Both the position numbers and the translations under genes were made by a program. Of a stretch of DNA of 64,000 nucleotides, positions 5,560 to 51,479 are shown one piece after another. Within the stretch, counting starts at the first letter, position 1. Each line of letters begins with the position of its first letter. The DNA comes from Macrostomum lignano. Lineage: Eukaryota. The notes beneath the pieces are model-generated. The model made no database searches. It had not been told where the DNA came from and saw only the letters and a list, made by a program, of their open reading frames with translations. The stretch covers positions 1-64,000 of the forward strand of contig NIVC01002358.1 in the NCBI GenBank assembly GCA_002269645.1, read 5' to 3'.

Positions 5560-6663
<1,104 letters not shown>

Positions 6664-29186: not shown

Positions 29187-30815
29187 CTGATTGGGCGGTG
29201 AGTTGAGGTGAGGGAATTAAGCCAGATTCTTACGGCCTCCCAAAGCAAAATGCTTTGTGGCAAACAAATGGTTGTGCTCCCTTTCACAAAATTGAGCTCC
29301 TTCCTGCTTATGCCAAAATGAGCGCGAGGAGTGCTGGAAGGAATTCCAGGACAGAAGCGCCAAACAAGGGCTAAAATTACCGTGAGTGCTGCAAAACTCG
29401 TTACTATTCCGTCATTTCCCCAACCATTGCGGCGCTGTGCGGCACTGCTCTATACAGCCAGCCACCCTTGGACTGGAAAATCTGTGTGTGACTTCAAATT
29501 TGATTTTTGAAGGGCAATTTTCCAACATTTCCGTTTCTATTCCTCTATATAGACTTTCGAAGATCGCGTGAGGGTGCAGTATCTGCTTGGTTACAGGTAT
29601 GGCAGGTAATAAGCGAAAGAACTGCATGTTAATTTGTTTTGACGAATTCTAATGAGGTTTTACCGTAAACAATTTTTGTAGAAGCTAGAAATATCACAGA
29701 AATACCTACCATCACAGAAATACTGGTAGGAAAAGTTGTAATTATTTATGTTCTATTTTTAGCCAGTTAGCCCAGTTTAATAAAAACTAACAGTGATCCC
29801 TGACCAGAGGCTACGGGAGTACTGCACGCAGATTATGATTTTTGAGTCTTAGACAGTCGAGTATCTTTAGTCGCTAGGCACAGAGACATAATGGTGTTTA
29901 ATTATCAAGAGATCAACTCAACTTACCAGGACTTAACTTTAGATAAGTTTTTTTTTGAAATTGGGCAAAAAATCTCAGCCAAACGCCGACGGGGCGAGCT
30001 GTGAAACCCGATCGACTGACTGACAGGCTTACAGCGGATCCGCAATGCCAGTTGAGACGAAAAAACGACCGGCTTGTGTCAGTTCTGCTTCCCGAAAAAT
30101 TCCATGGTGTCGGCTTTTTCTCCCCAAAGCCCCTATTGAAGGCCAGGCCATGCAGTCCCGCCCAGTCCCATACAAGCCGCTGATTGGTAGTCGCAGAGGC
30201 CTCCAGCTCAATGCCGGGGATGCCTTTGACGGTACACTTGGACACTTGGTAGCGAAGGGCGAAGTTGGTTGAACCAGCCAGCGCGCAGTCGGTGGAGGCA
30301 ACAGTTGGCTCCCTCACGCCCCCCGCCTCTCCTGGAAGGAATCCCTTGGCCTGACTGGCAAATACCAGTGCATAATTTTTGTCTTCCAGGCCATGCCGCC
30401 CAATCCAGCGCCCGGGGAATTCAAGGACTGCTGACGAAAGAAAGTCGCTGACGCAGTTCTGACTTGTTCCTTTACTTCGCGGAAAAAATTCCCGGGCGAT
30501 CCTCCTCTTGCTTTAAGAGGCCACGTGCTGCAATTTCTGCCGCAGGGAAATAAATGCCTTGCAGCACTCACTTCATATGCCCTTTCTCCGGCGGCTTGAA
30601 CAGAAGCTGCATGCCATTTCGGCAATTGGGGCGAAGGAGAATTTCTGTCGTGCCAGGAATTCCTAAAATATCTGCAATGCTTTGCCACCGTTTTTTCCAT
30701 TTCCTGGTAGCATTTTCTCTCACCTCAATCCGCTTGACTTGGTGAAGAAATAGTGAGAGAGTGAGTTTAAAAGAACTTATTCATGCAGGTTTATTTACCA
30801 TTAATGCTATTTGGT

Positions 30816-31697
30816 ACTACTAAGGGATTCCGTAAGTGTTGATTTTGGAGGTGGGGTGGGTGTCAACCCTCCTCGCCTCTCATTGGCTGGCGCCCCGATC
30901 ACTAGGTGATCGATACCCGTATCGATATCGGCGCTCGGCGCGCGCGCGCCGCAGGCGCGTGGCGCCAAGCGCCGTCCAGCCGCAGGCGACCCTCCCGAGC
31001 CACCGGCGACCCTCCCCAGCCGCAGGCGCACCTACCGATATGTATGCTCACCCTACCGACATGTACCCCGATATGTACACCCTCCCGAGCCGCAGGCGCA
31101 CCCTCCCGAGCCGTAGGCGCCCATGCCGCAGACGCCCATGCCGCAGGCACCCCGAGTGTACACTCTACCGAGCCGCAGGCACCCCGAGTGTACACTCTAC
31201 CGAGCCAAAGGTACACTCTACCACTCTCCCGATATGTAGTCAACGATATTAGGCTAGTGAAAACTACTTATAGTAGGTGAAATTGAGTATATTTACATAA
31301 AAATGTAGATAAAACATATTGGTAGGTGAATAATGACGCATATTGCATATTAAAATGTACATATTGGAGCATATGAGCAGCAAAAACACACAATGTAGGT
31401 GTATGGGCAGAAATAGACAAAGCAGGTACTGTAGGCGCTACATAGGTGGAAATACACACAGCAGGTTTACAAAGTGTACTTTCGATACATATCGGATTAA
31501 TGTATAAAGCAGGTTTACAAGGCATGCATAAGGTGTAGTTGTATAATACAGGCACGCATGTATAATCAGATTATAGGCAAACGCCCAGGTGCAACAGACG
31601 CGTAAATAATGTCACACCGACTAAAGAGTAAATATTGTCTAACCCGCAGGTGCATAAAAATTTTAAACAAAAGCGGTTCGGGGAAATCCCAAAAGGG
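30816..31697 (+). repeat. Left terminal inverted repeat (~882 bp)
   Basis: Reverse complement of 39326-40207; the spurious ORFs translated from both copies are identical; one mismatch seen near the inner end. Confidence 0.95.
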
Positions 31698-32015
31698 AGG
31701 TTTTAGCCGCCCGTTTTCGCCACCGCCGCCGCCGCCCTAACCCTCTTATAGGTACAATTGCGTTGAAAGTATTTCGAGTCATTAGGTTGTAATGACCCTC
31801 CATATTTTAGGTGGGTGGACTCGAGCCCGGGGCCAGCCCATTTCAGTTTTTTGGGCCGGCCCCTCTGCCAATTTCCTCCCTAGGAGCGAGCTATCAGAAT
31901 TGGTCTTTTAACCCCCGTGTATACACACATAGAGGCCCCTAGCTAGCGCCCATTCTAACCTACCCAGTGTACAGTGTTGGGTTCCCCAAACCGCGTACAA
32001 AGAGAAATACCCTTA

Positions 32016-33030
32016 TCAGTCAATCTCCATACGCTCCCTCAGGGCTGTCTCGTACGCGGCCTCTTCCTCCACGCTCTCGAAGCAGTAGTCGGATGACTGG
32101 CAATGTGGAAATTATAACAGTCAATGTAGATAGAATATATGCAAGGTATATGATTAGATGAGTTGTGTATATAATGTAATATCTTACCAAATCTAAATCG
32201 TCCTCCAGCCGCCACAGACGTAGAGACGCTGTATAGCGCACCAACGAAAGGTGCTCCTCCCAGTTGGAGGGCCATGCGACGGGCTCATCCCACGCAGTTG
32301 GCCGCGCTCCCGGACCGGCCAGGTACGCCTCAGAGTCGGGGGCATACGAATTGCGCCCCATCAACCAGTCCTGGTGCAGAGTCTCAGCCTCCAACACCTC
32401 CCGTAGGCCGGCACCCCTCGCAACCAAAGTATCAAGAACCCGATTAAAGGCTCTGACAAAGGTAGCTTGGGAGGGCAGCCCGCCAGGATGCCGAGACCTC
32501 AGCCAGTCAATGTCCCCGCGGAAAAATGAGGCCACAATGCGAGGAAAGCGCTCACGAACCACGGCGATCTCCTCAGACATATCCTCGTCCTCGTCGTCGA
32601 AGAGAAGGAGCGTAGCGGCTGATGATATTGAGGCCCGGTGGGAGGTAGTTGAAGCAGCAGCAGAGACGGGCGTAGTAGAGGCGGCAGCAGCAGAGACGGG
32701 CGCAGCAGAGGCAGGGCCGGTTGTGGTCAGCTCCTCAACAGAGACGTCAAAGAGGGCGGCTGAGGCGGTAGTCAAATCGGAGGCAGTAGCAGCAGGGGCA
32801 CCGTTCACAACCCCGCCGATAGCCAGCAGCGGGAGGTCAAAAACTTCAGACTCGGTGTCGCTATCATAGGACATAGCCCAAGCTAGATATTGATCAGCCT
32901 CCCAATTATCACTTCCGTTGTTTTCAGTGCCTAGGGGAACTATGTGTTCAGGGATATCCCCGTCGAGGCTGGTTAACTCTTCAGTCGGGCGATTATTATC
33001 CCAGAGGTTGGATAGAGCTCGGCGGGACAT
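32016..33030 (-). CDS. Element-encoded orphan protein (~307 aa if spliced: 33030-32188, 32096-32016)
   Basis: Open ORF with its own TATATAA (33110-33104). Putative 91-nt GTAAG...CAG intron 32187-32097 gives the C-terminus SSDYCFESVEEEAAYETALRERMEID*. No family recognised. Confidence 0.6.
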
Positions 33031-33146
33031 GCTAGAATCAACAGAGAGTAAAGTATTAGAGCTGAGATAGGGTTTGACTCTCTGGAGAGGGGGGAAACAC
33101 TAATTATATAGACGGATCGAGTGAGGCGGTGCGAACCAATAGGAAA

Positions 33147-33680
33147 CTAGCAGTCCCAACCCTCGTTAAACAGATTTTCCCAGGGTGGAGATTGGTAGGG
33201 TTTGAGACCCACGAGCTGAAGAACATCCACCTCAGTCCCGGCTACCGGAGGCGTGTCTGTCTTGACTCGCTTGGCTGGAGGGGGTGCCTCAGGTGCCGGC
33301 TTGAAGAGCTTGTCCAAACGGGCGGCAAACATCCGGCGCCACAGTTCAGGCGTGAATTCGATCGTGTAGCGCCAATTAAACTTTGGGTCCTGATTGAGCC
33401 AATTGCGCAGCAAACGGATCCTCCCTCGCGAAGCTTCAACTGCCTTGAAATTGCCCAACAGGACCCGCTTGTTCACGTGAAGGCGGGCAGCAGCCTCCAG
33501 GTCAGGGCGCGCAGCTTCGAGCTTCTTCCACTCTGGCTCGGCCAAGTAGATTGCAGGGAAGCCGTCCTTCCACACTCCAGCCTCGTTGGTGTAGAGACGC
33601 CGAATTTCAATCAAGTTGTGTTCAGTTTCAAATGTGGGCTTCCGCGCCACAAAGTTTTCGTATAGAGAGATAGAAGACAT
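33147..33680 (-). CDS. Element-encoded 177-aa protein, putative tandem PC4-like ssDNA-binding protein with NLS
   Basis: IEIRRLYTNEAGVWKDGFPAIYLAEPEWKKL and RIRLLRNWLNQDPKFNWRYTIEFTPELWRRM resemble the PC4 pattern (vdIReyy......pgkkGIsLtpeqW..L); C-terminal PPAKRVKTD. Confidence 0.6.
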   Translation of the reverse strand: MSSISLYENFVARKPTFETEHNLIEIRRLYTNEAGVWKDGFPAIYLAEPEWKKLEAARPDLEAAARLHVNKRVLLGNFKAVEASRGRIRLLRNWLNQDPKFNWRYTIEFTPELWRRMFAARLDKLFKPAPEAPPPAKRVKTDTPPVAGTEVDVLQLVGLKPYQSPPWENLFNEGWDC

Positions 33681-33920
33681 GATTTAGCAGCAGCAGCAGA
33701 GAGCTCTCTGACAGCCGTGCAGCGCCTTATATACCCCCGGATGGAGGGTGGGGTGGGTGATGATTTTGGGGTGATTTTTGATGATTTTGGTTGGTTTTTG
33801 GCGATTTATCCAATAACAGGCGAGCTGAGCAGATTTTTTAGTATATATACAGACCCCCAGAGCCAGGGTAGAGAGATAATCCTTCTCTCCGCTCGCTCTC
33901 TCACGCTCTCTGTTTGCAAA
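33681..33920. promoter_or_regulatory. Divergent promoter region between the PC4-like gene and pPolB
   Basis: Minus-strand TATATAA at 33733-33727 and plus-strand TATATATA at 33842-33849, each upstream of its ATG (33680, 33921). Confidence 0.5.
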
Positions 33921-36900
33921 ATGGCTAAACGCAGCGCCACCGCAACTGCTTTCCTGGCTGACAAGAGGCAACGTCTTTATGGTAAGTTTTAATTAATTTC
34001 TGTCTAGACTGTAGTTGCTAGGGTGGGGGTAGGGGCTGAGCAGCAGCAGCAGCTGCAGGGTCTGTGGGACCGCAGAGTAAACAACAAAGACTGCTGCGAC
34101 AGCTGCAGGGGTCTAGACTGGAGTTGCTAGGGTGGGGTGCTGCGGCAGGGTCTGTAACAGAGAGTTGCAGGGGAGGGCTAGACAAGTTTCAGCCGGGTGT
34201 GTGCTGATAAGAAATTGCTGCTAGGGGGGTGTTGTCCAGACAGGCTGCAGCTGGGGTGCAAATTGCTGCGACAGAGAGTTGCAGGGGTGAGTAAACAAAG
34301 ACTGGGGTGGGGTGTTGTCTAGACAGGGAGGGGTGTGCTGATAAGAAATTGCTGCAAAAACAGACAGTTGCTAGGGTGCTGCGGCAGATAAGAAATTGCT
34401 GCAGAATCGTTGGGGCAGGCTAGACAAGTTACAGCCGGGTGGGGGCAGAGAGTTGCTGGGACAGACTGGGGCTGCAGATAGGGCGCTACCCAGACAGGCT
34501 GCAGCTGGGGTGCAAATTGCTGCGACAGAGAGTTGCAGGGGTGAGTAAACAAAGACTGCTGCGACAGGCTGCAGCGGGGGTGCAGATAAGAAATTGCAGA
34601 GAGTTGCTGCGGGGACAGCAGAGTAAACTCTGTTAAGAAATTGCTGGGGCTAGGGCGGGGAAACACGCTGGGGCCAGGAAAATGACAGATTCTTCTGGTT
34701 TTTTATCTCCTTGTGTTTTTTCAGACGCGTTTGTCCCGCCAACACAGCCGGAATCTGTTACCGGACCGGGTGAGTTATCCCGCCCCCCATTTCCCACACA
34801 GACCCGGGCTGACTCACACTCCCCCATTCCCCCCATGCAGGTTTTACGGCCCGGCTGGATAATCAGCGTGACCTGCCCAAGTTTAGGGCAAAGGGTGTCG
34901 AGTATGTGGTGCGTATTACCAACACCGAAGATTTGCGGGAGGTGTTTGCTGACATGCTCGAAGTTTTCAAGCAAGATTTGGCTGGTGATGACTTTATGGC
35001 CGCGAAATTCGAGAGCGACAATATGCTCAAAGCGGCCCACACTCCCCCGGTGCGTGCAGCCCGCATGACGGCTGAATTGTTGTTTAAGCACATTGACAAG
35101 ATTGTGCAGTCGGATGCCACTGTATTGTCAGGCAACTTTTCTGTCCGTCTGCTAAAGGCCTGGGTGCCTCGAGGTGGATGTGCTCTCGAGAACAAGCATC
35201 TAGAAGAGCGGCATGCCTTCTCCAGGCACTATGTCCGCATCACCAACTCGGACAAGAGATGCCTGCTGCGCGCTCTGGTCGTGGCCTGCGCCTACCTACA
35301 ATTCGTGGCCAAGTCCATCAGCGAGCAGGTGTGGCGCACGATCAAGGCCAATTCGTCCAAGCAGACTAAGCTTGCGACTGAGCTACAAATCGAAGCTGGC
35401 CTCTACACGGTAAGTTTCTAGTATTTTTCTTATAAGAATTTTTACACAGTATCATGGAATACTAAAATTTTCTGATAATAATTTTTACACAGTATCATGG
35501 AGTACTAAAAGATATATTTTCTGATAAGAATTTTTACGATAAGGAATACTAAAAGAATTTTACATAGTATCAGGGAATACTAAAAGAAATATTTTACCCC
35601 CCACACAGACTCTTCAAACCGTCTCGCAGGCTGGTCCTTTCGGGGTGGATGCACTGCCCGAAGCGATCCGTGCCCTGAACCGGCTGCATCCGGGGCACGA
35701 TTTTGGTGTACGCGTGTACCGCGCAGAGGAGGCCAACAGGTGCATCTTCAACCTGCCGGGCACCGAGATTCTGCACCTGCACCTGGTCGAGCAGCACTTT
35801 AATGTGGTCACCAAGCTGCCTGCGTTTTTCGGCAGCCACCACTACTGCGACAAGTGCGAGATGGCCTATGATAGCGAACCCGCCAAGCACAAGTGCGCTG
35901 ATGCCTGCAGCACATGCAAGACTCCGGGCTCCAACTGTAAGGCAAACCGCGCATATGTAAGATGCCATGATTGCGGGCTAAATTGCTATAATGCTCAGTG
36001 CCTAGAAAATCACAAGCGCAAGAATAAGGCCGGCAGATCGCGCTGTGATTCGGTCCACGTTTGCGGCACGTGTGGCTATCTAGAAGAACTAAAAGTAGGC
36101 CAGCCCCCTGAGCATCAGTGTGGTTACGCCAAGTGCCCAGTCTGCAAGCAGTACGACGAAACTGCCACCCACGAGTGCTTTGTCACCCCGCCCAAAGCCA
36201 AAGAGTCTAGCGCCCCGTATGTTTACTATGATTTCGAGACGTACGTGGACTCTGGCAAGCAGCACCGGGTACACTTGGTTACGGCTGCCACCTCCTGCGA
36301 GGCGTGTCCCAAACTCTTCCCCAGGCCCCGCTGCAGCGTGTGCGGGGGACTACACAGCTCAGCCAATTGCATTGCGGGACGCGATTTGGCACTCGATTTC
36401 ACGAGCTGTGTCTCGCACAATGACTGTGCCTGTGGGATGCGAGAGTTTGTATCTGTCGGGCCGCACTCTATCGATGCATTTTACTGCTGGCTGACTAGTG
36501 TGTTCAAGCAGGGGGCAATTGCTATTGCGCACAATGGCTCTGCGTATGACGCATTCCTCCTGCTCGGCGCCCTACTCAACGGACTGGCCAAGAAGAAGCC
36601 GCAGTGATCTTCCAGAACAGCCGCCTAATGTACATGAAGTGCGACAAGATCACCTTCAAGGACAGCCTCAATTTCATCCCTATTGGTCTGGCGCAATTCC
36701 CAAAGGCGCTTGGTTTGGGCACCCAACTGACCAAAGGAGATTTCCCGCACGTGTTTAACCAGCCGGAAAATTGGGGGTACGTGGGACCCTACTGCTCAAT
36801 TGATATGTATGGAGGAAAGAAAAACAAGCAGCATGACTCCATCGCAGACTGGCTGGCCAAGCAGGAGGGACAGGTGTTTAATTTCAATAAGGAGTACCTG

Positions 36901-38966
36901 GACTACTGCCTGCAGGACACGTTAATTTTGCGGGAAGGCTGTCTAAAGTACACCCGCCTGATTAAGGACATTTGCGGACTGGACGCATTTGTTCAATCCA
37001 ACACCATTGCGGGCTTGGCTATGGCTGTTTTCACCACCAAGTTTATGGAGCCCAACACTCTTGGGGTGATTTCCCGCCGGTCCGATGTACAGTCGCACAA
37101 GGCGCGGTGCTGGCTGCGCATTTGAATGCAACCGAGTTTGGCGGCCGGTTGCGGACAGCGGACTCGGGCGGCGAGGCTTTCGCCATGGGCCGTAAGGTCG
37201 ACGGCTTCGACCCAGAGACCAGGACAGTGCTGCAGTTTCATGGCTGTTTCTACCATGGCTGTCCCAAGTGCTTCCCCAACGGCGACGTGCTGCACCCGCT
37301 CAAGAACCAGCCAATGCGGGCGATTTATGAGGAGACTGAGCGCTTCACCCGGCTGCTCTCCACTGCATACAATGTGCGTGTTCTGTGGGAGCACGACTAT
37401 CAGGACGAGGGAGCGCCAGTCCAGCAGCCTATTCGCCTGGAGGATGCCCTGTTTGGCGGCCGTACCGAGGCTTTTGTCCCGCACGCCGAGGCCACCGAGA
37501 CTGTAGAGCTGCGCTATCGGGATGTGGTAAGTTTGTACACTTGTACACACACAGTTGACATGCGTTTGAGTTTATCTTATCCTTATCCCCTAGGTGTCGC
37601 TCTACCCGACTGTCAACAAGTTTGACAAGTACCCGGTCGGGCACCCGGTACACCACCCCGAGCCTCATCTACTGGATGAGCTGCAGCTGGCCCGGTATTT
37701 TGGCATCGCCGAGGTGTCGATTCTGCCGCCAACCAATCTCCACATCCCGCTACTGCCCGCCAAGATTAACAAGAAGTTGGTTTTCGGCCTCTGCCGCGTC
37801 TGCATGGAGACCCAGTGCAGCAGCGAGTGTACACACACTGACGCTGAGAGAATGCTCCGCGGCACGTGGTCGACCCCAGAGCTCCACAAAGCCCTGCAGT
37901 TGGGTTACAAGCTGCAGTCAGTTCATGCCCTGGCCTATTGGACCGAGACTCGCACGGGCCTGTTTGCAGATTATGTAAACACTTTTTTGAAGCTCAAAGC
38001 CGAGTCTAGCGGTTCGCCGGGGATGGCTGAGGACGCCAAGGCTGCCTACATGGCCAGCTTTTTCGAGCGCGAAGGCGTCCGGCTGGAAAAGGTGGAGGAG
38101 AATCCTGGCTTGCGCTTTGTGGCCAAGATTTTTCTAAACTCGTAAGTTTTTTCTACTTGCAGTGGGGCCGTGTTTTTCTACTTACATAAAATTTATTTTT
38201 CCCTGCAGGCTCTGGGGCAAATTCTGCCAGCGCGACGACCTGACCTCCACAGAGATTGTGGACAGCTACGAGGCGTGGCTGCAGCGCCTGACCGACCCCT
38301 CGATCAAGGTCAAGTCGTGCGAGCCAATTGGGGAGAGCTTCATGATGCTCGAGTACAAGCCCCGATTTGGCGGTGCTGGCGAGCGGGCGTTCAAGTACGC
38401 TAATGTACCTATTGGCGTTTTCACCACCTCCCACGCCCGGCTGCGACTCTACGAGGCTCTGGAGGGTCTAGGAACCCGCGTCATTTACGCCGATACTGAT
38501 TCGTGAGTAATTTTTTCAACTGTCTCTGTCTCTCTTTCTCCCCTTAACACTTTATCCTTCTCCTCCTCCCAGGGTCGTATACCGCTGCTCTCCGGGCGAG
38601 TACGAGCCTCCGGGCGGTTCGAGTTTGGGGCAGTGGACTGACGAGGTACCTGCTGGCTGCCGCATGGTACAGTTCACCACGGGAGGCCCCAAGCTCTACC
38701 GGTACGTGGTGGAGAAGCCCGACGGGTCGCTGTACTCGGTGCTCAAGTGCAAGGGCATCAGAGTCACCCCCGAGATTTCCGAGCGCGAGGACGAGCTGCA
38801 GGAAATTCTGCGCCACGGCGGGACTGTACGGCTGCCCCAGGCCCAGTTCAGGCGCGATAAGGCTAGCTGTACAATCCGGACCCTCGAGATGGACAGGACT
38901 TTCCAGCGCGTAATGACTAAGAGGGTGTATGGGGCCGCTAGCCGCCCGTATGGCTTTCGGGAGTGA
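33921..38966 (+). CDS. polB: Protein-primed family B DNA polymerase (pPolB), ~1,270 aa, 7 exons: 33921-33981, 34725-34769, 34841-35409, 35630(or 35609)-37526, 37594-38141, 38209-38502, 38573-38966; two apparent single-base deletions (~36600, ~37118)
   Basis: ExoI YYDFET, ExoII AHNGSAYD, FKDSLNF, ExoIII YCLQDT, Vsr-like VDGFD...QFHGCFYHGCPKCF, motif A YRDV|VSLYP, motif B AKIFLNS|LWGKF, motif C YADTDS|VVY; all six introns GT-AG and phase-compatible. Confidence 0.9.
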
Positions 38967-39325
38967 GTGAAAGATAAGGATCTGTCTTTGCACGCCTGGG
39001 ATTCCCCTATGTGCCCACTTGGGATCCCTTGACTCGTGGGGATGAAAATGGTTTTACGCCCGCACTGTACTTAGGGGTCCTTACTCATTTGGCACCTCCA
39101 CTGTACATTGAGCGGGATCCCCTCAAGTGTTAAAACTCCCATTTGACACCTATTCCCTCGGGGCGGTTTGTGGCCCAGCGGTCCGCCTCTTGGAGTAGAA
39201 CTCCTGACATAAACTTGCTGCGCTGATTAGCGTACTGATAGCGCAATCGAAATACGTCCATTTTTCTAGCCCACTTGTGGGTTTAATTGTGTTGAAAGTA
39301 TATCGGGTCATTAGGTCGTGAACCA

Positions 39326-40207
39326 CCCTTTTGGGATTTCCCCGAACCGCTTTTGGTTAAAATTTTTATGCACCTGCGGGTTAGACAATATTTACTCTTT
39401 AGTCGGTGTGACATTATTTACGCGTCTGTTGCACCTGGGCGTTTGCCTATAATCTGATTATACATGCGTGCCTGTATTATACAACTACACCTTATGCATG
39501 CCTTGTAAACCTGCTTTATACATTAATCCGATATGTATCGAAAGTACACTTTGTAAACCTGCTGTGTGTATTTCCACCTATGTAGCGCCTACAGTACCTG
39601 CTTTGTCTATTTCTGCCCATACACCTACATTGTGTGTTTTTGCTGCTCATATGCTCCAATATGTACATTTTAATATGCAATATGCGTCATTATTCACCTA
39701 CCAATATGTTTTATCTACATTTTTATGTAAATATACTCAATTTCACCTACTATAAGTAGTTTTCACTAGCCTAATATCGTTGACTACATATCGGGAGAGT
39801 GGTAGAGTGTACCTTTGGCTCGGTAGAGTGTACACTCGGGGTGCCTGCGGCTCGGTAGAGTGTACACTCGGGGTGCCTGCGGCATGGGCGTCTGCGGCAT
39901 GGGCGCCTACGGCTCGGGAGGGTGCGCCTGCGGCTCGGGAGGGTGTACATATCGGGGTACATGTCGGTAGGGTGAGCATACATATCGGTAGGTGCGCCTG
40001 CGGCTGGGGAGGGTCGCCGGTGGCTCGGGAGGGTCGCCTGCGGCTGGACGGCGCTTGGCGCCACGCGCCTGCGGCGCGCGCGCGCCGAGCGCCGATATCG
40101 ATACGGGTATCGATCACCTAGTGATCGGGGCGCCAGCCAATGAGAGGCGAGGAGGGTTGACACCCACCCCACCTCCAAAATCAACACTTACGGAATCCCT
40201 TAGTAGT
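39326..40207 (-). repeat. Right terminal inverted repeat (~882 bp)
   Basis: Reverse complement of 30816-31697. Confidence 0.95.
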
Positions 40208-42504
40208 TTTGGTGTTGCAACCAATGCATGTAGAACTCGAGCTGTACATGTAGAAGTCCAATTTTGTTTCTTAGCACTGCATGTATCAGAAACAGCTCCC
40301 ATTATCTCACCGTATGGACTTCCGAATGACAAATGGTTTGATTTTCAAGATCAAACATGAAACTTCATGAAGCTTCATCAGTTTATCGACGTAAATTCAG
40401 GAAAAATACTACTAACGACTGTCAAGTGCGCGAAATTTGAGCAAAATTTGCTTCTTCGTGCAGCTTCTTCTGGAAATTTTGGGTCCACCTCCATCTATTA
40501 ATTTAACACGTGCAAGGGACACTACTGCGCCTTCAAATATACGAATTATTTATCTTATAGAGTAGTTCGTTCTGATGCAATTGTAACCTCGATTAATATT
40601 TGCTAAATAATACTGGCACCATATGCCGTGTGGTCGCCATGCAGGCGTTAGCGGAGATGGGCGGCGACGCTGATTTTATCTCATTTATATTTCATTTTGA
40701 CTTCATTTTACTCTCTGATCCCCGATAAGCCTCCGATCAAGCTCTTGAAGGCTGGTCCCTCCACATGTACATGGCACACAAACTATATCGTAGTAGATGC
40801 ATGTATACTCTATAAATTAAAGCTTAGCACTAAAGTACAGTCCATGTAAAAAGCGTGCGCGTGCAGAAGTATGAAATTAGCAGTTTTTTTTTGTTTGAAA
40901 CTGTGAAGCATACTGCGCCGTCAGCGATTGGATTTTCGTACTTGCAAAATAAGTACATATGTAGTGTTGTGCGATTATGACTTGTGACAACTTACTACAC
41001 AAAAAAGAAATGAACTAGCTAAGTACTTTGTAGTTTATGCAGTCAAGCTCATAGGAAAGACAAAGTGAATTAATTGTGATAAATAGTATGGGGGGAAGCT
41101 GTAAGAATTATTAATTAAGATGGAGACTCCACGACACAAAACTGAGGTTCACAACTACGCTTCAAGGACCACTAGTTCTTCTTCTAGTGGTCCTTGCTAC
41201 GCTTTACTGAAGTCTATCTAGGCCTATTACTCATACGAGTTTATTAGGCAAAACTAAGTATTTTTTCTCTTAGATAGATAGTCTAAAATCGTATTTTGAA
41301 TATAAGAAATTATTTACTACAGCTTTTTTTGCCAGACAAGTTTTGTTTATATTGAACAGTGGATTAATTTTAAACTGACCGACGTCGAAGAAATGCGCTC
41401 GTAGAGCGCTCGTTTATTAATATGAAACGGTGGGTTAGCTCCAAGGGCAAGTAATAATGAAAAAGTCTGTCAGGCGTCTGTCAGGCGTTAAGCCTTACAA
41501 TTAGGTCTAATGTAGTGAGATTGCTAAAATAAAAATAGTATATATGAAGCATATTGCAATAGGGGCATAGCCCATAGGGCATAGGGCCTGTCTGTCTGAG
41601 CTGTCTTCCTGCCACATGTGTATGTATGTACCATCACATTAAAGAATTGCAGCCTAGCTTATTGGATTTGCTTTCTCAATAATGTCGAGATCTGCTACTG
41701 TTTATAGCTTTAAGCTTCTTAATAATATGTAGACTTATAGTTAATGATTAGTCAACTTTGTCTTTAGTTTAGTTAAAAATGTGATTGCTAGCTAAGTCAG
41801 TAGCCACTTGTACTTTCATTTTGTCAAACTCAAAGCATTAAGCTATAATAAAAATCAAAGTAGTATTTTTCATGACATTAAATGTTTTACTTTTAGGCCT
41901 AGCCATTATAGAATAACTTGCTTGAATAAAAAAATTGCTTAATTAATGTTTAGGTTTATTAAATTAAGGTCATATTCATAGATATAATATAAAAAATTTG
42001 ATTTTTCTTCTCAATATTCTGAGAGTTACAAGAAATAAGGACAAGGTAATTTATTTCAAAAAAAATTTACTATTTTGTACTATTTTTAAGTGTTCTAATA
42101 TTATATTTATTATTGTCAATAAATCATTTCTTATAAAACTATATAAAAATAAATTTAACATTTTTAATAATTCAAAAGTGTTTTTTTATTGAATATATAA
42201 TTTTTTTTGTTTTTATTCTTTTATTGACTTTATATAACTCTTGACTATTGTCAATTGAGCCTATATCTGAAATAATAAATATATAATAGGGATGAAATTT
42301 CAAAGGTTATAATCAGTAACATTTTTAGCAATAATGCTATCTTAATTAGAAAATTGAAGTTGAACTAAAAATTATATTATTTAAAAATAATCATGTAACT
42401 TTTATATCAAATTCTAACTATAATATTGATTAATTTAACTTTAAAGGTTTGATTTATATTAATTATAAAAACAATTATTAATGCATGTAAGTAAATCAAA
42501 TCCA

Positions 42505-45500
42505 ATGGAAGCCTCACTTGCTGAACAATTGCGCAATGCAGCAGGACAAGGTCAAGTGGGCCTTGTTGGTGAACTACTCAGAGCCAAGGCACCAATCGAA
42601 CCTGATAAGGTTTGTAGCTAGTTAATAGTTTTAAAATTTAAAATGGCCATCTTTTTTAAGTATTCATTCAAACCATTTTTGATTGCTTTTTTTCAAATAC
42701 TCCTAAACTTCACTCTGCAAATAGTGGCAGCTATATCAATAAGAATTGTCAATTTAGTACCTCAGTAGTTAAATGTGGGGAGCTTAGCTACCTTCTGTGA
42801 GAAGCGCCCAGTTATTAGCTTAGCTACCTATGAGGATCGCCAGCTTAGCTACCTGTGAGAATCGCCAGCTTAGCTACCTGTGATAATCGCTCAGTTATTA
42901 GCTTAGCTACCTGTGAGAATCGCCCAGTTATTAGCTTAGCTACCTGTGAGAATCGCCAGTTATTAGCTTAGCTACCTGTGAGAATCGCTCAGTTATTAGC
43001 TTATATACCTATGAGAATCGCCCAGTTATTAGCTTAGCTTCCTGTGAGAATCGCCCAGTTATTAGCTTAGCTACCTATGAGAATCGCCAGCTTAGCTACC
43101 TGTGAGAATCGCCAGCTTAGCTACCTGTGAGAATCGCTCAGTTATTAGCTTAGCTACCTGTGAGAATCGCCCAGTTATTAGCTTATATACCCGTGAGAAT
43201 CGCCCAGTTATTAGCTTAGCTACCTGTGAGAATCGCCCAGTTATTAGCTTAGCTACCTATGAGAATCGCCCAGTTATTAGCTTATATACCTATGAGAATC
43301 GCTCAGTTATTAGCTTAGCTACCTGTGAGAATCGCCCAGTTATTAGCTTAGCTACCTGTGAGAATCGCCCAGTTATTAGCTTAGCTACCTGTGAGAATCG
43401 CTCAGTTATTAGCTTAGCTACCTGTGAGAATCGCCCAGTTATTAGCTTAGCTACCTGTGAGAATCGCCCAGTTATTAGCTTAGCTACCTGTGAGAATCGC
43501 CCAGTTATTAGCTTAGCTACCTATGAGAATCGCCAGCTTAGCTACCTGTGAGAATCGCCAGCTTAGCTACCTGTGAGAATCGCCAGCTTAGCTACCTGTG
43601 AGAATCGCTCAGTTATTAGCTTAGCTACCTGTAAGAATCGTAGTACGTCTGTATTTTTGGGTGGGCATTTTTGCGACTTACATTGGTTGGGCCCCCTGCC
43701 AGCCGGCCGGGTCGGCCGGGTGTTATGCTGGAGTCTGCCGACCCTGCACTAAGCTAATGTTGAGAATCTCCCCAATCCTCCCCACCAGGAAGGCCGTCTT
43801 GCCCTTCACTTGGCTGCGGCCGGCGGCCACGTCCAAATCTGCCGTCTGCTGCTGGACGCCGGCGCGCCAGTCAGCGCTGGCGACGCATCCGGCGTGACGC
43901 CGCTCCAGCTGGCGGCCCGGCATGGCCACGCCCAGCTCGCCCAGCTGCTGGTTGACGCCGGCGCCGATACGAATGCGCGCGACGAACGTCGTGGCGGCAA
44001 TTCGGCGTTGCACGACGCCGCCTGGCAGGGCTACTCGCGCACCGTCGACCTGCTGTGCCGGGCCGGCAGCGACGCCAACGCCGAGAATCGAGCCCAGGCC
44101 ACTCCGCTGCACTTGGCCGTGCAGAACGGGCACAACGAGTGCACCCGGGCCCTGCTGCACGCTGGCGCCGATCCCAATAGGCAGAACACATTCGGCGACA
44201 CAGCGCTGCACACGGCTGCTCGCTACGGCAGGCCAGGTGAGGCCTCTGGGGGGGGGGTTCGTCAGAATTAAAGTACCATCTGTCATGCCTAGGTAGGAAG
44301 TAGCCAGCGGTAAACACTTTTAGACTCTCAAGCGCCACGACCCCTAGTTCGATTCCTTGCAAGGCCTCTGACCTACTTGACTCAGCTGCAGGGGGGGCTC
44401 CGGGCAGCTGGATGCAGCGGGGAGGCGACCACGAGCAGTTAGTGGTGCCGGTGTCTGCAGCGCGGTCTCCCTCCAGAGAGTCCAGGAGGTGGATGGTCGC
44501 TCGCCCAGTAGCCCTTAGGTAGCGGACGAGCTGACAGAGATTCTCGGGCCTGAAAACGTTGGAGAGGTCCGGGTTTGGGCCGAGGTAGGTGAGCCTGTCC
44601 TGTCCTGAGTAAAGGCGGGGCATTCACAGATAAAGTGCTCCGCGTTCTCGACACCGGAGAGGCAGAGCAGAAAGGGCATTCCTCGCTGTGGATTTTTCCC
44701 TGGAGGTAACGATGCCTGGCATAACAGCCATGAGCCGAGAGGGCCATGGTCACCGCCCCGATGTCCCTGCGGTTGAGTCCAAGCAGGGCCCTCCGCAGGG
44801 CGGAGGAAGGACAGGGGACAGCCGCGCGGGATTGCCGGCAGTCGGGGGGCGCAAGCCCACCTCTCCCTGTGCTTTGTTGCAAGGCCTCAGCCATTTGGTT
44901 GGAGGTTGTCGTGCAATTCATACTTCTGAAGCATACGCAACCTCCAAATTCGGTCGGCTGTGCGACTTAGTTTTAACAAAAATGCGACATAGTTTTGGGC
45001 CAAAAATGCGACTTACATGTAAAAGAAACCCTAAAGCAAAATTAACGCAACTTTGGGTAAACGGCAGGAGTAACTATGACTGTCTTATTAAGGCAAAATG
45101 CCTCGTCAAATACTTAGTACTACTAGCGTGTGTACGTATGTGCTGCTCTGGAGTCACCGGAATGGGCAGAATTGCCATTAGCGTTGATTGTGGGACCAGG
45201 GTACTCACAGCTCTTCCGTGACTATTGACTTCATATTTTTTAATGCTGAACTTACACTGAAAAGCGCGCATCCGCAATCCAGGCGCGGCGCGCATCCTAT
45301 TAAGCGCCGGGCCAGTTGTCCGGGTCAACTGTCGCAATAAAAACGGCGACACGGCGCTGCACGTGGCCGCCGCGCTGCGTCGCCGACGAATCGCCGGCAT
45401 GCTGCTGGACTGTCGGGCGGACCCGAGCCAGCGCAACCAGCAGGGCGAGTCCCCGGTGGACGTCGCGAAGCGCAAAGGCTACTCGGATGTCGTCCAGCTG

Positions 45501-48141
45501 CTGCTTGGCCTGGCCGCTGCCGGCTCCGTGTCTGTCAGCTCCGGCGGGTCTGCCGCCGCCGCAGCTGCGATGCTGCATCATCATCAACAGCAGCAGCAAC
45601 AGCAGATGCTTCATCATCAGCTGCATCATCAGCAGCATCCTGGCGGACCGTCCGACAGCGGCCACGGCTCCGCTGGCACCGACGCGGTGCTCCAGCTGAT
45701 GATGCCGCAGCCCGAAGCTGCTCAGCCTTCGCCTCCGCCGCCTCCGCCGCATCCTAAGCAGCAGCCGACGCGCACCCTCACGCCTCCGATGCTGCCCCAG
45801 CAGCAGCAACAACAACAACAACAACAACAACAGCAGCAAAAGAAGAAATCTAAATCTAAACTGCTCAAATGGTCGGTGCTTTCGCTTTTCCGTAGGGGCG
45901 GCAGCGGCAAAAATCAGCCAGGCGGAAAGAAGCAACAGCAGCAGCAGACTTCGTCGGCCGTGGCTCCGGCTCCGGTTGTGCCGGCCCAGGTGGCAAGCCA
46001 GCACCACCCGGTCACCTTCTATACGGATCTGGGCGGCAACCTCCGGCAGGGACCGTCGGTAAGTGCTGTGCTGCTTCTCAAGCAATTAAATTATCATTGC
46101 AATAGCTTAGTCAGTTTGATCGCCCCTGACCCATATCTATTCTTTGAGAATCGCCCCTGAGCCATCTCTTTTCTATGAGAATCGCCCCTGAGCCATCTCT
46201 AATCTATGAGAATCGCCCCTGAGCCATCTCTATTCTATGAGAATCGCCCCTGAGCCATCTCTAATCTATGAGAATCGCCCCTGAGCCACCTCTATTCCAT
46301 GAGAATCTCCCTTGATCCATATCTCTATTCTATAAGAATCGCCCCTGAGCCATCTCTATTCTATAAGATTCGCCTCTCAGCCATCTATATTCTATAAGAA
46401 TCTCCCTTGATCCATCTCTATTCTATGAGAATCGCCCCTGAGCCATCTATATTCTATGAGAATCGCCCCTGAGCCATCTCTGACCTATGAAAATCGGTTA
46501 TAGATGCTGCTCATGACAGTTGCTCTTCATCACCCATCATCCAGCTTCCTCACTCGCCACCCCGCACGCAGTACATGGCCTCCAGCAACTGCACCTGCCA
46601 GCTGAATCCGCAGTCCTGCATTGAGCACGGCTTTCGCGAATGGCACGGCCATATTGGCAATGCCCCGGTCTATGCTGCCGCTCCTCGCCAACCCGGCACT
46701 GTCCAGCCTCCTGCTCAGCCTCATCGCCACCATCTGTTGAACTCGCAGCAGCCGCCTCAACAAAGATTATACCGAACTAGAAGCGACGAGTCTTTGTCAA
46801 TGTCCGGCCACAAGGTGCGCACTCAGGCGGCCAAGTCGCGTGCTCGGGCCCAGCAGCAGCAGCTGCTGATGGGATACGGCGGCGGCGGCGGCGGTGCGGC
46901 CGCTGCCGCTGCGGCCGCGGCTGCTGCGGCTCAATTCGGCCAGCCGCAGTTCGGTAGGCGTGGACCAACTGCAGCCCAGCAGCCGGTTGCTATGGACGCC
47001 GCTTTCGCTTGGAAGCGAGGTGTGCAATGCGCTTACTAGCATTTTGCTAACTGCATGGTTTTAGGGGGTTGCAGCCTAGTGGTTAGAGCGTTGGACTCAC
47101 GACTGAAAGGTCGGGGGTTCGATTCTCGATCCACCTCGGAACAATTTGTGTCCTTGAGGAAGACACTTAAATCACTTAAATTTTGTGATTCATTATTGCT
47201 GAGTAAGCATCGTTGACTAAAGTGGAAGCTTACAGGTATACAGTGTTAGGTTCTATCTTATGAGTGACCGCTCTTATTGACTGATAGAGCTCTCATGTTG
47301 AGTCAGTGAGCTGTCATACTGAGTCAGTCAGCTGTCATGCTGAGTCAGTGAGCTGTCATACTGAGTCAGTCAGCTGTCATGCTGAGTCAGTGAGCTGTCA
47401 CACTGAGTCAGTGAGCTGTCATACAGAGTCAGTGAGCTGTCATGCTGAGTCAGTGAGCTGTCATACTGAGTCAGTGAGCTGTCATACTGAGTCAGTGAGC
47501 TGTCATGCTGGGTCAGTGAGCTGTCATGCTGGGTCAGTGAGCTGTCATGCTGGGTCAGTGAGCTGTCATGCTGGGTCAGTGATCTGTCACACTGAGTCAG
47601 TGAGCTGTCATACAGAGTCAGTGAGCTGTCATACTGAGTCAGTGAGCTGTCATACTGAGTCAGTGAGCTGTCATGCTGGGTCAGTGAGCTGTCATGCTGG
47701 GTCAGTGAGCTGTCATGCTGGGTCAGTGAGCTGTCATGCTGGGTCAGTGATCTGTCACACTGAGTCAGTGAGCTGTCATACAGAGTCAGTGAGCTGTCAT
47801 TTCGTGCCCCACCATAACGCACAGCCGGCCTGGACGAGCAGCAGCCGCAGCAACTCCGCGACTCCGCAGCCTCGCCGGGTCCCTACGGCAGCCTCGACGA
47901 CGAGCCGCATTTCGAGCGTCGAGACCGCGCCGACCAGGAAGGCGGCGGCTCCCTTCAGCGCCACCGCCGCTTTCTTCGCCAGCACCGGCGTCGGCCAGCC
48001 GCCAGCAGCGACGACGACGGCGTCGACGACTCCGACTTGTTTAGCGACGCCGACCACGACGCCGACGAGGAGGAGGAGGAGGACGGAGACGCGCCAAGAA
48101 GTCGCTCGCTGCATCGTCGGCTGAGCGGCGTGTTGAACTAA
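42505..48141 (+). CDS. ANKRD6: ANKRD6/Diversin/Diego-like ankyrin-repeat protein, 5 exons (42505-42609, 43789-44236, 45283-46058, 46572-47019, 47825-48141)
   Basis: Ankyrin series [48 protein letters not shown] parallels ANKRD6, followed by a [13 protein letters not shown]...CTC motif; splice phases consistent. Confidence 0.75.
42790..43635. repeat. Tandem repeat, ~22-33-bp units (tgtgagaatcgcccagttattagcttagctacc), ANKRD6 intron 1
   Basis: Directly visible. Confidence 0.9.
44290..44930 (-). mobile_element. 5'-truncated LINE 3' end (ORF2 C-terminal CCHC zinc knuckle) in ANKRD6 intron 2
   Basis: [26 protein letters not shown], then after a frameshift [19 protein letters not shown]...[10 protein letters not shown]; typical of I/R1/Loa-like ORF2 tails. 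Confidence 0.65.
46140..46495. repeat. ~33-bp tandem repeat (tgagaatcgcccctgagccatctctattcta), ANKRD6 intron 3
   Basis: Directly visible. Confidence 0.9.
47064..47175 (+). mobile_element. tRNA-derived SINE head
   Basis: A box (TAGTGGTTAGAGCG) and B box (GGTTCGATTC), followed by GTGTCCTTGAGGAAGACACTTAA, a hairpin common in tRNA-SINE bodies; no proper acceptor stem. Confidence 0.6.
47295..47800. repeat. 21-bp tandem repeat (gagtcagtgagctgtcatact), ANKRD6 intron 4
   Basis: Directly visible. Confidence 0.9.
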
Positions 48142-48837
48142 TTAATCTCTGTGTCTTTCTTTGTGACTGTGTGTACTTTGTGTCGGATTTAAAATTATTT
48201 GATTTTGTTTTAATTTTATCCTTGCCAAGGGCTGCCCAGCCTCGCTTTTCACCCGTTGTACAAAAGATTACTGTTATTATACATAATTATTTTTTCTAAT
48301 ATCGAGTACGTTCTTCTCAGTGTATTTTTAGCCGTTCGCGCAAAAAATTGTGCCAATATTTGTTTGCTTTTACTAGTAGTAGGCTAAATTGCGAATTCAG
48401 ATCGTTTTTTCCCTAACATATCGCTCCGAATTATTGCTTAGTTCTTTATCTGCCCACTTTTAATATTTGAAATTTATAATTGCATTTTCTTGATCACTGC
48501 ATTATCAGTTTTATTACAAGAAATGTGCTTTTATATTGTTGGCATTTACAGGTATCTGTTTTTACACCTCTTTATAATTGACCAATCAAGATTGCCAATG
48601 CACAGCAGACATTTATTTGTTTATCCTTCTGCTCGAAATTCGGTCAAATTTTCCCTCTAATAGACGGCTATTAATAACTTGTGCCGAACCCCTTTGTCAC
48701 ATTGTGATTGGGCTTATAATAATTACGTAATATATGAACTTGAAAGCCAACTGCTTCGTCTGAGCCCTGTTTAATAAAGTCCAGTCGGCATTATTTCATG
48801 ACTACAATAGGGTTCAGTGAAAACAGATTGCGCAGGG

Positions 48838-51420
48838 GGGATGAGATTAGATCAGAGTGGAATGAGATTAGATCAGAGTGGAATGAGATTAGATCAGAGT
48901 GGAATGAGATTAGATCAGTGTGGAATCGGGTTAGATCAGAGTGGAATGAGATTAGATCAGAGTCGAATGAGATTAGATCAGAGTGGAATGAGATTAGATC
49001 AGTGTGGAATCGGGTTAGATCAGAGTGGAATGAGATTAGATCAGTGTGGAATCAGTGTAGAATCAGATTAGATCAGAGTGGAATGAGATTAGATCAGAGT
49101 GGAATGAGATTAGATCAGAGTGGAATCAGATTAGATGAAATTAGATGAAATTGGAATGAGATTAAATCAGAGTGAAATCGGATTAGATCAGAGTGGAATG
49201 AGATTAGATCAGAGTGGAATGAGATTAGATCAGAGTGGAATCGGGTTAGATCAGAGTGGAATGAGATTAGATCAGAGTGGAATCAGATTAGATGAAATTA
49301 GATCAAATTGGAATAAGATTAGATCAGAGTGGAATCGGATTAGATCAGAGTGGAATGAGATTAGATCAGAGTGGAATGAGATTAGATCAGAGTGGGATAG
49401 GATTAGATCAGAGTGGAATCAGATTAGATCAGAGTGGAATCGGATTAGATCAGAGTGGAATGAGATTAGATCAGAGTGGAATCGGATTAGATCAGAGTGG
49501 AATCGGATTAGATCAGTGTGGAATGAGATTAGATCAGAGTGGAATGAGATTAGATCAGAGTCGAATGAGATTAGATCAGAGTGGAATGAGATTAGATCAG
49601 TGTGGAATCGGGTTAGATCAGAGTGGAATGAGATTAGATCAGTGTGGAATCAGTGTAGAATCAGATTAGATCAGAGTGGAATGAGATTAGATCAGAGTGG
49701 AATGAGATTAGATCAGAGTGGAATCAGATTAGATGAAATTAGATGAAATTGGAATGAGATTAAATCAGAGTGAAATCGGATTAGATCAGAGTGGAATGAG
49801 ATTAGATCAGAGTGGAATGAGATTAGATCAGAGTGGAATCGGGTTAGATCAGAGTGGAATGAGATTAGATCAGAGTGGAATCAGATTAGATGAAATTAGA
49901 TCAAATTGGAATAAGATTAGATCAGAGTGGAATCGGATTAGATCAGAGTGGAATGAGATTAGATCAGAGTGGAATGAGATTAGATCAGAGTGGGATAGGA
50001 TTAGATCAGAGTGGAATCAGATTAGATCAGAGTGGAATCGGATTAGATCAGAGTGGAATGAGATTAGATCAGAGTGGAATCGGATTAGATCAGAGTGGAA
50101 TCGGATTAGATCAGAGTGGAATCAGATTAGATCAGAGTGGGATAGGATTAGATCAGAGTGGAATGAGATTAGATCAGAGTGGAATGAGATTAGATCAGAG
50201 TGAAATAAGATTAGATCAGAGTTGAATCAAATTAGATCAGTGTGGAATGAGATTAGATCAGAGTGGAATCAGATTAGATCAGAGTGAAATAAGATTAGAT
50301 CAGAGTGGAATAAGATTAGATCAGAGTGAAATAAGATTAGATCAGAGTTGAATCAAATTAGATCAGTGTGGAATGAGATTAGATCAGAGTGGAATGAGAT
50401 TAGATCAGATTGGAATGAGATTAGATCAGAGTTGAATCAAATTAGATCAGTGTGGAATGAGATTAGATCAGAGTGGAATGAGATTAGATCAGAGTGGAAT
50501 GAGATTAGATCAGAGTGGAATAAGATTAGATCAGAGTGAAATAAGATTAGATCAGAGTTGAATCAAATTAGATCAGTGTGGAATGAGGTTAGATCAGAGT
50601 GGAATGAGATTAGATCAGAGTGGAATCAGATTAGATCAGAGTGGAATCAGATTAGATCAGAGTGGAATCAGATTAGATCAGAGTGGAATCAGATTAGATC
50701 AGAGTGGAATCAGATTAGATCAGAGAAAAATAGATTAGATCAGAGTTGAATCAAATTAGATCAGTGTGGAATGAGATTAGATCAGAGTGGAATCAGATTA
50801 GATGAAATTAGATCAAATTGGAATCAGATTAAATCAAAGTGGAATCGGATTAGATCAGAGTGGAATCGGGTTAGATCAGAGTGGAATGAGATTAGATCAG
50901 AGTCGAATGAGATTAGATCAGAGTGGAATCAGATTAGATCAGAGTGAAATAGGATCAGATCAGAGTGGAATGAGATTAGATCAGAGTGGAATCAGATTAG
51001 ATGAAATTAGATCAAATTGGAATCAGATTAAATCAAAGTGGAATCGGATTAGATCAGAGTGGAATCGGGTTAGATCAGAGTGGAATGAGATTAGATCAGA
51101 GTGGAATCAGATTAGATCAGAGTGGAATGAGATTAGATCAGAGTGGAATCAGATTAGATCAGAGTGGAATCGGGTTAGATCAGAGTGGAATGAGATTAGA
51201 TCAGAGTGGAATCAGATTACATCAGTGTAGAATGAGGTTAGATCAGAGTGGAATGAGATTAGATCAGATTGGAATCAGATTACATCAGAGTGGAATGAGA
51301 TTAGATCAGAGTGGAATGAGATTAGATCAGATTGGAATCAGATTACATCAGAGTGGAATGAGATTAGATCAGAGTGGAATGAGATTAGATCAGAGTGGAA
51401 TGAGATTACATCAGTGTAGA
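48838..51420. repeat. 21-bp satellite (atgagattagatcagagtgga) with a ~598-bp higher-order duplication
   Basis: Directly visible; identical variant runs start at 49135/49733 and 49292/49890. Confidence 0.95.
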
Positions 51421-51479
51421 TTCAGCATTTGTTTCCCATCCCTGTTTCAGCAGTAAACGCGCCAAGACAAAGGATTGTG

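Follow-up and report, generated by a model that had tools for sequence, protein, structure and literature searches.

The window examined here is a 64,000-nucleotide stretch of the Macrostomum lignano genome (contig NIVC01002358.1), and the subject of this report is a gene within it that encodes a DNA polymerase of the protein-primed family-B kind (pPolB) with a short spliceosomal intron in, or at the end of, each of its three catalytic motifs. The gene lies in a 9.4-kb element (30816-40207) bounded by perfect 887-nt inverted repeats and flanked by a TTTGGT duplication. Besides pPolB the element carries a PC4-like gene and a variable orphan frame, and no integrase, capsid, protease or packaging ATPase gene was found within its 9.4 kb. 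A preliminary description of this DNA had taken the element for an ordinary Polinton, which the absence of integrase and capsid genes contradicts. Its features are as follows (window coordinates, strand where one applies).

30810..30815: left target-site duplication TTTGGT, 6 bp, with an identical hexamer at 40208-40213
30816..31702, plus: left terminal inverted repeat, 887 nt, starting ACTAC, with a conserved box from base 28
32020..33099, minus: open frame of 359 codons stop to stop, of no known family, present in some copies only
33147..33680, minus: PC4-like protein, 177 aa (cluster scores and BLASTP)
33921..33981, plus: pPolB exon 1, start codon inferred (joint in X1)
33982..34724, plus: intron 1, phase 1 (joint listed in X1 only; GT..AG in 18/18 mapped copies of 20)
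34725..34769, plus: pPolB exon 2
34770..34840, plus: intron 2, phase 1 (joint in X1, X3 and X8; 18/18 mapped copies)
34841..35409, plus: pPolB exon 3, terminal-protein region and start of a vOTU-like region
35410..35608, plus: intron 3, phase 0 (joint in X3 and X8; GT..AG in 17/19 mapped copies)
35609..37526, plus: pPolB exon 4, Cys-rich region, exonuclease, Vsr-like insert and start of motif A (PF03175)
37527..37593, plus: intron in motif A, 67 nt, phase 0, YRDV|VSLYP (RNA-type joints, copies, profile aligner)
37594..38141, plus: pPolB exon 5 (PF03175, E 5e-13)
38142..38208, plus: intron in motif B, 67 nt, phase 2, splitting the Ser codon of KIFLNS (an immediate stop if retained)
38209..38502, plus: pPolB exon 6
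38503..38572, plus: intron at the motif-C end, 70 nt, phase 2, splitting the Ser codon of YADTDS (an immediate stop if retained)
38573..38966, plus: pPolB exon 7, up to the stop codon
39321..40207, minus: right terminal inverted repeat, a 100% complement of its left counterpart
40208..40213: right target-site duplication TTTGGT

Splice joints and gene content

The preliminary description placed introns of 67, 67 and 70 nt at the motifs (37527-37593, 38142-38208 and 38503-38572), and both the sequence and the joints found in sequencing runs bear this out. Logan contigs of four runs (X1, X3, X8 and X16) were compared with the window, out of 24 listed runs of which none is recorded as RNA and 18 are guessed to be RNA. 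Contigs of X1, X3 and X8 omit exactly the three motif-intron stretches, and in X3, likewise in X8, all three joints stand on one single contig. None of the five GT..AG joints listed for the runs occurs in X16, which is DNA-like with a depth of about 800-4700; 13 further joints exist beyond those listed. Exact joints in three of the four runs also answer an objection that the preliminary description had foreseen, namely that no spliced reads would cross these junctions. All three motif introns have donors of the form GT(A/G)AGT and acceptors of the form YAG, and they show the features of U2-type introns (GT..AG ends, consensus donor, pyrimidine tract and exact removal, the last in runs guessed to be RNA). 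A spliced aligner supplied with a profile of 45 outside homologues found them blind, together with intron 3. X1, X3 and X8 come from three studies and their status as RNA is a tool's guess only, which weighs against this evidence; even so, we consider it virtually certain that the three motif introns of the window pPolB are real. As had been claimed, the pPolB depends on host nuclear splicing and surveys based only on open reading frames would catch just fragments of it, so that such surveys undercount these viruses.

Three further introns had been proposed in the 5' part of the gene. Introns 1 and 2 have joints where they were placed, but intron 3 ends at 35608 in X3 and X8 and not at 35629, which is a second in-frame acceptor AG and the one picked by the profile aligner.

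Introns at catalytic motifs could in principle act as a cell-type or germline switch, as the preliminary description suggested, and the P-element transposase is regulated by such a difference in splicing between germline and soma. Retention of intron B or C leads to an immediate stop, X1 has coverage inside intron B (51-70 of about 370), and X1, X3 and X8 all have contigs reading unspliced into intron 1, as a regulatory role would allow. On the other hand, fully spliced contigs occur in three studies, those of X3 and X8 being spliced at all three sites, these two runs have depth 0 at every listed position within intron B, and the splice sites are strong, with consensus sequences in nearly all copies. 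Nor would a switch explain why the introns are in the motifs, a position it does not require, since a frame-breaking intron anywhere upstream of motif C would suffice to switch the enzyme. We therefore find a germline-versus-soma switch very improbable and infer that splicing of the motif introns is constitutive.

The window pPolB is about 30% identical to fish and metagenome pPolBs, its closest database proteins are M. lignano gene models, and Pfam PF03175 matches its exons 4 and 5. We assign exon 3 to the terminal-protein region and the start of a vOTU-like region. The general domain architecture of pPolBs is set out in the accessible text of PMC11071308. Exon 4 runs for 1.9 kb without an intron and, in the window copy, has two frame breaks (near 36,600 and 37,115) that are absent from the preliminary description; the reading frame is unbroken over the profile in 6/20 copies of the window's own family (family 1) and in 5/10 copies of a second family (family 2, described below) that were tested. 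Within exon 4, at about 37140-37420, lies a Vsr-like nuclease insert. The top fold-search matches to its predicted structure (mean pLDDT 85) are Vsr proteins, with probability 0.97-0.99 and E 0.013-0.023, and the homing nuclease I-Bth0305I is a weaker match; a sequence search of the PDB with the Vsr region returned 0 matches. A similar insert is reported in a marine nematode pPolB2 (10.1101/2023.08.22.554363, accessible part).

The PC4-like protein scores 0.86-0.87 to PC4 clusters and matches a Pfam-PC4-matching Polinton protein of the same genome (BLASTP E 5e-11), and it is probably a single-strand DNA-binding protein for strand-displacement replication. The orphan frame of 359 codons is spanned without joints by contigs of X3 and X8. 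The slot to the left of the PC4-like gene (window 31703-33255; L032, L038-L042, L044, L045, L048) varies between subfamilies, holding this frame, an acidic frame of 232 codons (L048) or no long frame.

Introns across copies and clades

The window region has at least 40 sisters at 90-99% identity (40 of 122 candidates scored). Family 2 follows the same plan, with elements of 9.5-9.7 kb, ACTACGT ends and 6-bp duplications (matching in 2/2 elements); its DNA is about 65% identical to that of family 1, and its intron sequences are unrelated and cannot be aligned. All three motif introns were present in 35/35 family-1 and 12/12 family-2 loci mapped (47/47), so that the sister copies without these segments that the preliminary description had envisaged, as a sign of copy-specific insertion, were not encountered. 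Copies with a common target duplication are one insertion assembled twice and copy counts therefore overstate events; among 13 family-1 rows there are 11 distinct insertion sites. Over the 47 loci the motif introns measure 65-121 nt, apart from one with a 2.2-kb insert, and their ends are GT..AG throughout, barring that insert, one lost final base and one GC donor. The ratio of nonsynonymous to synonymous substitution (dN/dS) of the window pPolB is 0.10-0.49 against 19-20 sisters, and 0.11-0.16, with dS above 2, against 10 family-2 copies. Open frames of 867 aa make family 2 look intronless, a reading we rejected: its motif-A intron is 81 nt long, in frame and without a stop (L051:4711-4791). 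The profile aligner places its motif-C intron at 5702-5779, ending CAG. The motif introns are thus ordinary spliceosomal introns that are old and were kept while their sequence turned over.

In an alignment of homologues, the three motif-intron sites fall within the top 0.2-3.8% of conserved boundaries. With three of the six window introns in the top 2.1-3.8% the binomial P is 2e-4 to 1e-3, for a threshold set after the fact, and the Fisher combined P is 0.003-0.01. Spliceosomal introns normally have no preference for conserved sites, according to the accessible text of PMC2814812.

Spliced alignment of related pPolBs, a check that the preliminary description had proposed, revealed a separate clade with introns at other motif-A positions and in other motifs. 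Convincing introns were found in 4/65 metagenome pPolB loci, a set gathered partly by a pattern spanning the motif-B site. L193 has them in the exonuclease II motif (HNMK|G), at site 647, in the Vsr motif and in motif A at 814/2; L194 at site 647 and in motif A at 814/2; L192 in the Vsr motif; and L195 has one whose acceptor directly follows SLYP. Positions within motif A consequently differ (813/0, 814/2 and about 819/0). The four sites of L193 alone give a Fisher P of 0.007-0.008, and when all 11 intron sites are pooled, three of them sitting in one motif, 7 fall in the top conservation decile (P 2e-5). The profile aligner found no introns in 8 viral pPolB loci or in L061. Calls with weak donors or no AT contrast were dropped (L168, L176, L179, L188 (4), L191, L192 (1), L193 (1), L197, L198, L203, L211 (2), L217, L218, L051 426/2 and L154).

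The two groups with introns come out in different starred clades of the trees, and one joint clade for them is rejected by the approximately unbiased test (p-AU 5e-6, or 6e-4 with two intronless relatives added), in a quick tree of 18 rows from which six in-genome intronless polymerases were excluded as too distant. L192 and L193 adjoin ATPase or capsid genes, and motif introns therefore occur in ordinary Polintons too. Several points weigh against reading these patterns too strongly: the other three window introns lie in poorly conserved or unprofiled sequence, site 647 of the separate clade is outside the conserved columns, and the enrichment among the foreign loci is inflated by the profile aligner, whose detection of introns is best where the sequence is conserved. 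Taken together, introns cluster in the invariant motifs of two separate polymerase clades.

Three minor observations concern individual loci. At the motif-A site, L064 carries a third intron sequence that is unrelated to the others. The Vsr-motif intron is present in L192 (6441-6560) and L193 (2442-2552) and is exactly absent from L194 (330-460), the closest relative of L193. Finally, L061 (3831-6096) is an AT-rich, decayed and intronless pPolB of the same broad group that lies outside the intron-bearing families.

Origin and persistence of the motif introns

Neutral gain is one account, and the preliminary description had raised gain at conserved proto-splice sites. None of the junctions (TG|G, TC|G and TC|G) has the form MAG|G, and AG|G is as frequent in conserved columns as elsewhere (0.014 vs 0.014); that suggestion is not supported, although G|G is somewhat commoner in conserved columns (0.076 vs 0.050), two foreign introns lie at AAG|G or ACG|G, and half of the window introns are outside the motifs. 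Introns might also have been transferred from host polymerases through recombination within conserved motifs, but motifs A, B and C are unbroken in 3/3 host family-B genes, and we rejected this source; by their motifs we take these genes to be polymerase delta-, alpha- and zeta-like. Detection bias could contribute to the clustering; against it, RNA joints fix the model of the window gene, and over its 1.9 kb exon 4 has no intron. Neutral gain at proto-splice sites or host transfer, helped by such bias, is in our judgement unlikely.

A second possibility is that self-splicing introns or inteins once homed to the motifs and turned spliceosomal later, leaving the present introns as their remnants. 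At motifs A and B the positions resemble intein sites of family-B polymerases (PolB). Inteins of PolB occupy three fixed active-site positions, one of them YGD|TDS, which the motif-C site resembles (PMC549080, accessible part), and group I introns as well as homing nucleases, the latter common, are described in Polinton-like viruses (PMC12220804, accessible part). A scan against Rfam at E up to 1 gave only 2 chance-level matches, both in the terminal repeats and none in introns; the introns are 65-125 nt long and dissimilar to each other, and three positions within motif A are unlike the fixed alleles of homing elements. Likewise, having no Rfam match, a length of 67-70 nt and a frame-breaking effect, the window's motif introns do not qualify as group I or II introns or as inteins. 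What they have in common with inteins and group I introns is interruption at active-site motifs (PMC549080 and PMC2814812, in part); they differ in being short, GT-AG and spliceosomal, with no open reading frame or structure, and in positions that shift by a few bases between lineages. A literature search on intein alleles found nothing. We regard descent from self-splicing elements as distinctly improbable.

Spliceosomal introns in Polinton-like elements also have a precedent in the introner-bearing Polinton-like viruses of dinoflagellates, where, as far as the available text of 10.1101/2025.03.18.643946 goes, they are young repeated transposons mostly gained after integration. The window introns, in contrast, are old and mutually unlike, are fixed in every copy examined and cluster in the motifs. 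Among 13 introns, no pair beat 200 shuffles at p below 0.02 in a comparison for introner-like similarity, which did not include a genome-wide search.

Inteins, like group I introns, are held to prefer conserved sites for two reasons, that homing nucleases target such sites and that removal must be exact (PMC2814812, accessible part). We favour the same reasons, nuclease escape or irreversibility, for the fixation of the motif introns, over neutral gain or bias, self-splicing ancestry and a switch. Site-specific or homing nucleases would cut conserved motif codons; repair of the cut would leave an insertion, which the spliceosome would remove from the RNA and which would block re-cutting. Once in place, an intron could be lost only by exact deletion if the enzyme is to tolerate the loss. 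Gain by cut and repair with protection from re-cutting, which we propose by analogy and from the Vsr-like insert of this polymerase, is a tentative idea that falls short of even chances, and retention by irreversibility alone is a possible but somewhat doubtful account. Against these accounts stand the weakness of the Vsr fold match (E 0.013), the foreign intron that splits the Vsr domain itself, and the single exact intron by which L193 and L194 differ, showing that precise gain or loss happens. RNA-supported introns in all three catalytic motifs, together with a separate clade hit in motif A, nonetheless provide a testable case of targeted intron gain.

A probable partner family with the same ends

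An integrase search of the genome (115 matches scored, of 2640 candidates) revealed two classes. In one, represented by L138 and L139, genes for an integrase, minor and major capsid proteins, a protease and an ATPase lie between inverted repeats, and the major capsid protein scores 0.98 to double-jelly-roll (DJR) clusters. In the partner loci examined there is no polymerase signal (best E 0.62). This partner family is multi-copy and about 10 kb in size, with about a dozen repeat pairs 9-10 kb apart, and L138 and L139 have the same layout at about 75% DNA identity. The second class consists of canonical Polintons of 17-21 kb with AGTAGT ends, adjoining long intronless polymerases. Their polymerase is distant from that of the window (profile score 36-66 vs 951-981) and their integrase is only about 34% identical to that of the partner; L126-L137, L140 and L141, with AGTAGT ends and a polymerase of their own in canonical 17-21 kb elements, were rejected as partners. 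A search with Pfam Pox_A32 had no genome match (150 of 375 candidates scored), which is uninformative since ATPases are present.

Partner elements end in ACTAC, 22 variable bases and then, at base 28, the same box as the polymerase elements. The end pattern occurs in 68/232 loci compared, comprising polymerase, fold-back and partner loci and no canonical ones, and the exact 20-nt box has 167 matches in the genome versus 0 for a reversed control. Where both ends were available, target duplications match in 24/25 polymerase or fold-back elements; among partner elements they match in 3/4. Identical variable terminal stretches are found on polymerase and partner elements, suggesting that a single polymerase copies both.

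The fold-back elements, of 8-9.4 kb with 4-kb derivatives, have the same ends as the polymerase element. Elements of about 9.2 kb, found by way of the terminal 145 nt, were considered as the coding partner and rejected, most being gene-poor fold-backs. L066-L070 and L076 (e.g. L066:323-9710) are multi-copy fold-backs of about 9.2 kb with two 4.5-kb mirror arms and no convincing gene; they share the ends and 6-bp duplications of the polymerase element and are probably snap-back replication products turned parasites. Terminal bases 6-27 occur as a few interchangeable variants common to the element types (window 30816-30842; L032-L045, L221-L232), usually alike at both ends of one element, a pattern that suggests terminal exchange or panhandle repair.

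We thus observe a spliced polymerase segment and a polymerase-less structural segment with common ends and with 6-bp duplications on both. Their gene sets are complementary, PC4-like gene and polymerase on one and the rest on the other, and together they measure about 19.6 kb, as a normal Polinton does. From these sequences we consider it probable that the two families are mutually dependent, that is, complementary halves of a bipartite Polinton. In such a system the spliced pPolB and the PC4-like protein would replicate all molecules with these ends, namely polymerase, partner and fold-back elements, from the common ends by protein priming and strand displacement; the partner's integrase would insert all three kinds, and its capsid would package them separately in pieces of about 8-11 kb. 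The separate packaging, suggested by the narrow size range, is a step we hold with considerable doubt. Bolder still, and on balance doubtful too, the system may be a bipartite double-stranded DNA virus of Polinton kind, in which a polymerase segment and an integrase/capsid segment have common ends, enter particles separately and integrate each on its own, and in which the polymerase gene has repeatedly acquired motif introns that serve, like inteins, as armour against the sequence-specific nucleases of competing elements.

The two families could instead be deletion derivatives of an unseen or recently lost full-length Polinton with the same ends, with no stable two-part system. DNA transposons commonly give rise to such derivatives, this genome contains shorter and fold-back ones, and our hit lists cover only part of the candidates. 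Yet among 38 inward end pairs, 9 contain the polymerase only, 9 the integrase only and 0 both gene sets, the rest comprising 7 with partner-type ends and 13 unclassified; this tally covers the first 100 of the 167 box places, pairs up to 16 kb apart, and the best 115/2640 integrase and 91/974 PF03175 candidates. The complementarity of the gene sets likewise speaks against derivation by deletion, as do the existence of two polymerase-only families with the same layout and purifying selection at dS above 2 and that of two partner copies about 75% identical with one layout. We judge derivation by deletion to be a minority possibility, though one to be reckoned with. Alternatively, each family might parasitise canonical AGTAGT Polintons separately, with no mutual need: canonical elements of 17-21 kb with integrase, capsids and an intronless polymerase are abundant, and both end types start with A and a short repeat. 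However, over the box the polymerase and partner ends agree with one another base for base and not with canonical ends, and the partner retains its own integrase, and we think separate parasitism unlikely. Weighing against the bipartite reading as a whole are that the partner's gene content was read in two copies only, that a full-length master element could be hidden behind the partial hit lists, and that family 2 has ACTACGT and terminal variants but not the box.

The system shares with Polintons/Mavericks the protein-primed family-B polymerase, long inverted ends and a 6-bp target duplication, with an rve integrase, DJR capsid, protease and ATPase brought by the partner. It differs in having its core genes on two elements of about 10 kb rather than one of 15-20 kb, in ends of ACTAC...GTAGT and not AGTAGT, and in the six spliceosomal introns of its polymerase. 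Polinton/Maverick ends read 5'-AG...CT-3', as they do in the canonical elements of this genome and not in the window element, which as a single element also falls outside the Polintons by its lack of an integrase and of capsid, protease and ATPase genes, and by its intron-bearing gene. Intact vertebrate Mavericks are reported to be intronless (PMC8097293, accessible part), and flatworm Polinton insertions have been reported without regard to introns, as far as the available text of 10.1101/2025.04.19.649669 extends.

In bidnaviruses both segments have a common terminal sequence, and these viruses are single-stranded, with a parvovirus-type capsid and no known integrase. The Bidnaviridae (Bombyx mori bidensovirus) resemble the present system in a two-part genome (PMC5680193, accessible part) and a Polinton-derived polymerase (PMC11071308, likewise in part); here, by contrast, the two parts are double-stranded and integrated, and the capsid is of the DJR type. 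Transpovirons and linear protein-primed plasmids are similarly capsid-less linear replicons with inverted ends, said to have arisen by loss of the structural module (PMC11071308 and 10.64898/2026.10.13.758929, in part). Their dependence on giant viruses, or their location in cytoplasm or mitochondria, sets them apart from the window element, which is nuclear, spliced and integrated and has a structural partner with the same ends. The tabulated multipartite families include no double-stranded DNA entry, and the segmented list only polydnaviruses, in the accessible part of PMC5680193. Our literature search, with subscription journals, Repbase and supplements outside its scope, found no description of a bipartite Polinton or of motif-centred spliceosomal pPolB introns; scans of viral contigs with the family-2 protein, protein P0146 and the end pattern also found nothing. 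If true, the division of a Polinton into a replication half and a morphogenesis half with shared ends would be a living case of module independence, an idea termed speculative in a 2026 preprint (10.64898/2026.10.13.758929, accessible part), and would account for polymerase-only and polymerase-less elements now classed as defective. As the host is apparently a laboratory flatworm, the system is open to study by observation.

Some further features were recorded in passing. Canonical capsid/integrase modules also occur as inverted duplications with an integrase in both arms (L126, L127, L135), and L224 and other DJR matches reveal two or more additional capsid lineages in the genome, of about 432 and 463 aa. 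In a public viral contig, a PD-(D/E)XK nuclease gene lies directly upstream of pPolB (L083:2786-3196). Around the element, the window contains flanking host genes, namely a Casc1-like gene (1617-3716), an aquaporin-family (MIP) frame (5560-6663), an ankyrin-repeat frame (45261-46160) and a gene for an RA/PDZ protein (60470-62815), as well as long minisatellite arrays with 36-nt and 21-nt units at about 16450-18700, 21600-24700 and 48700-51800.

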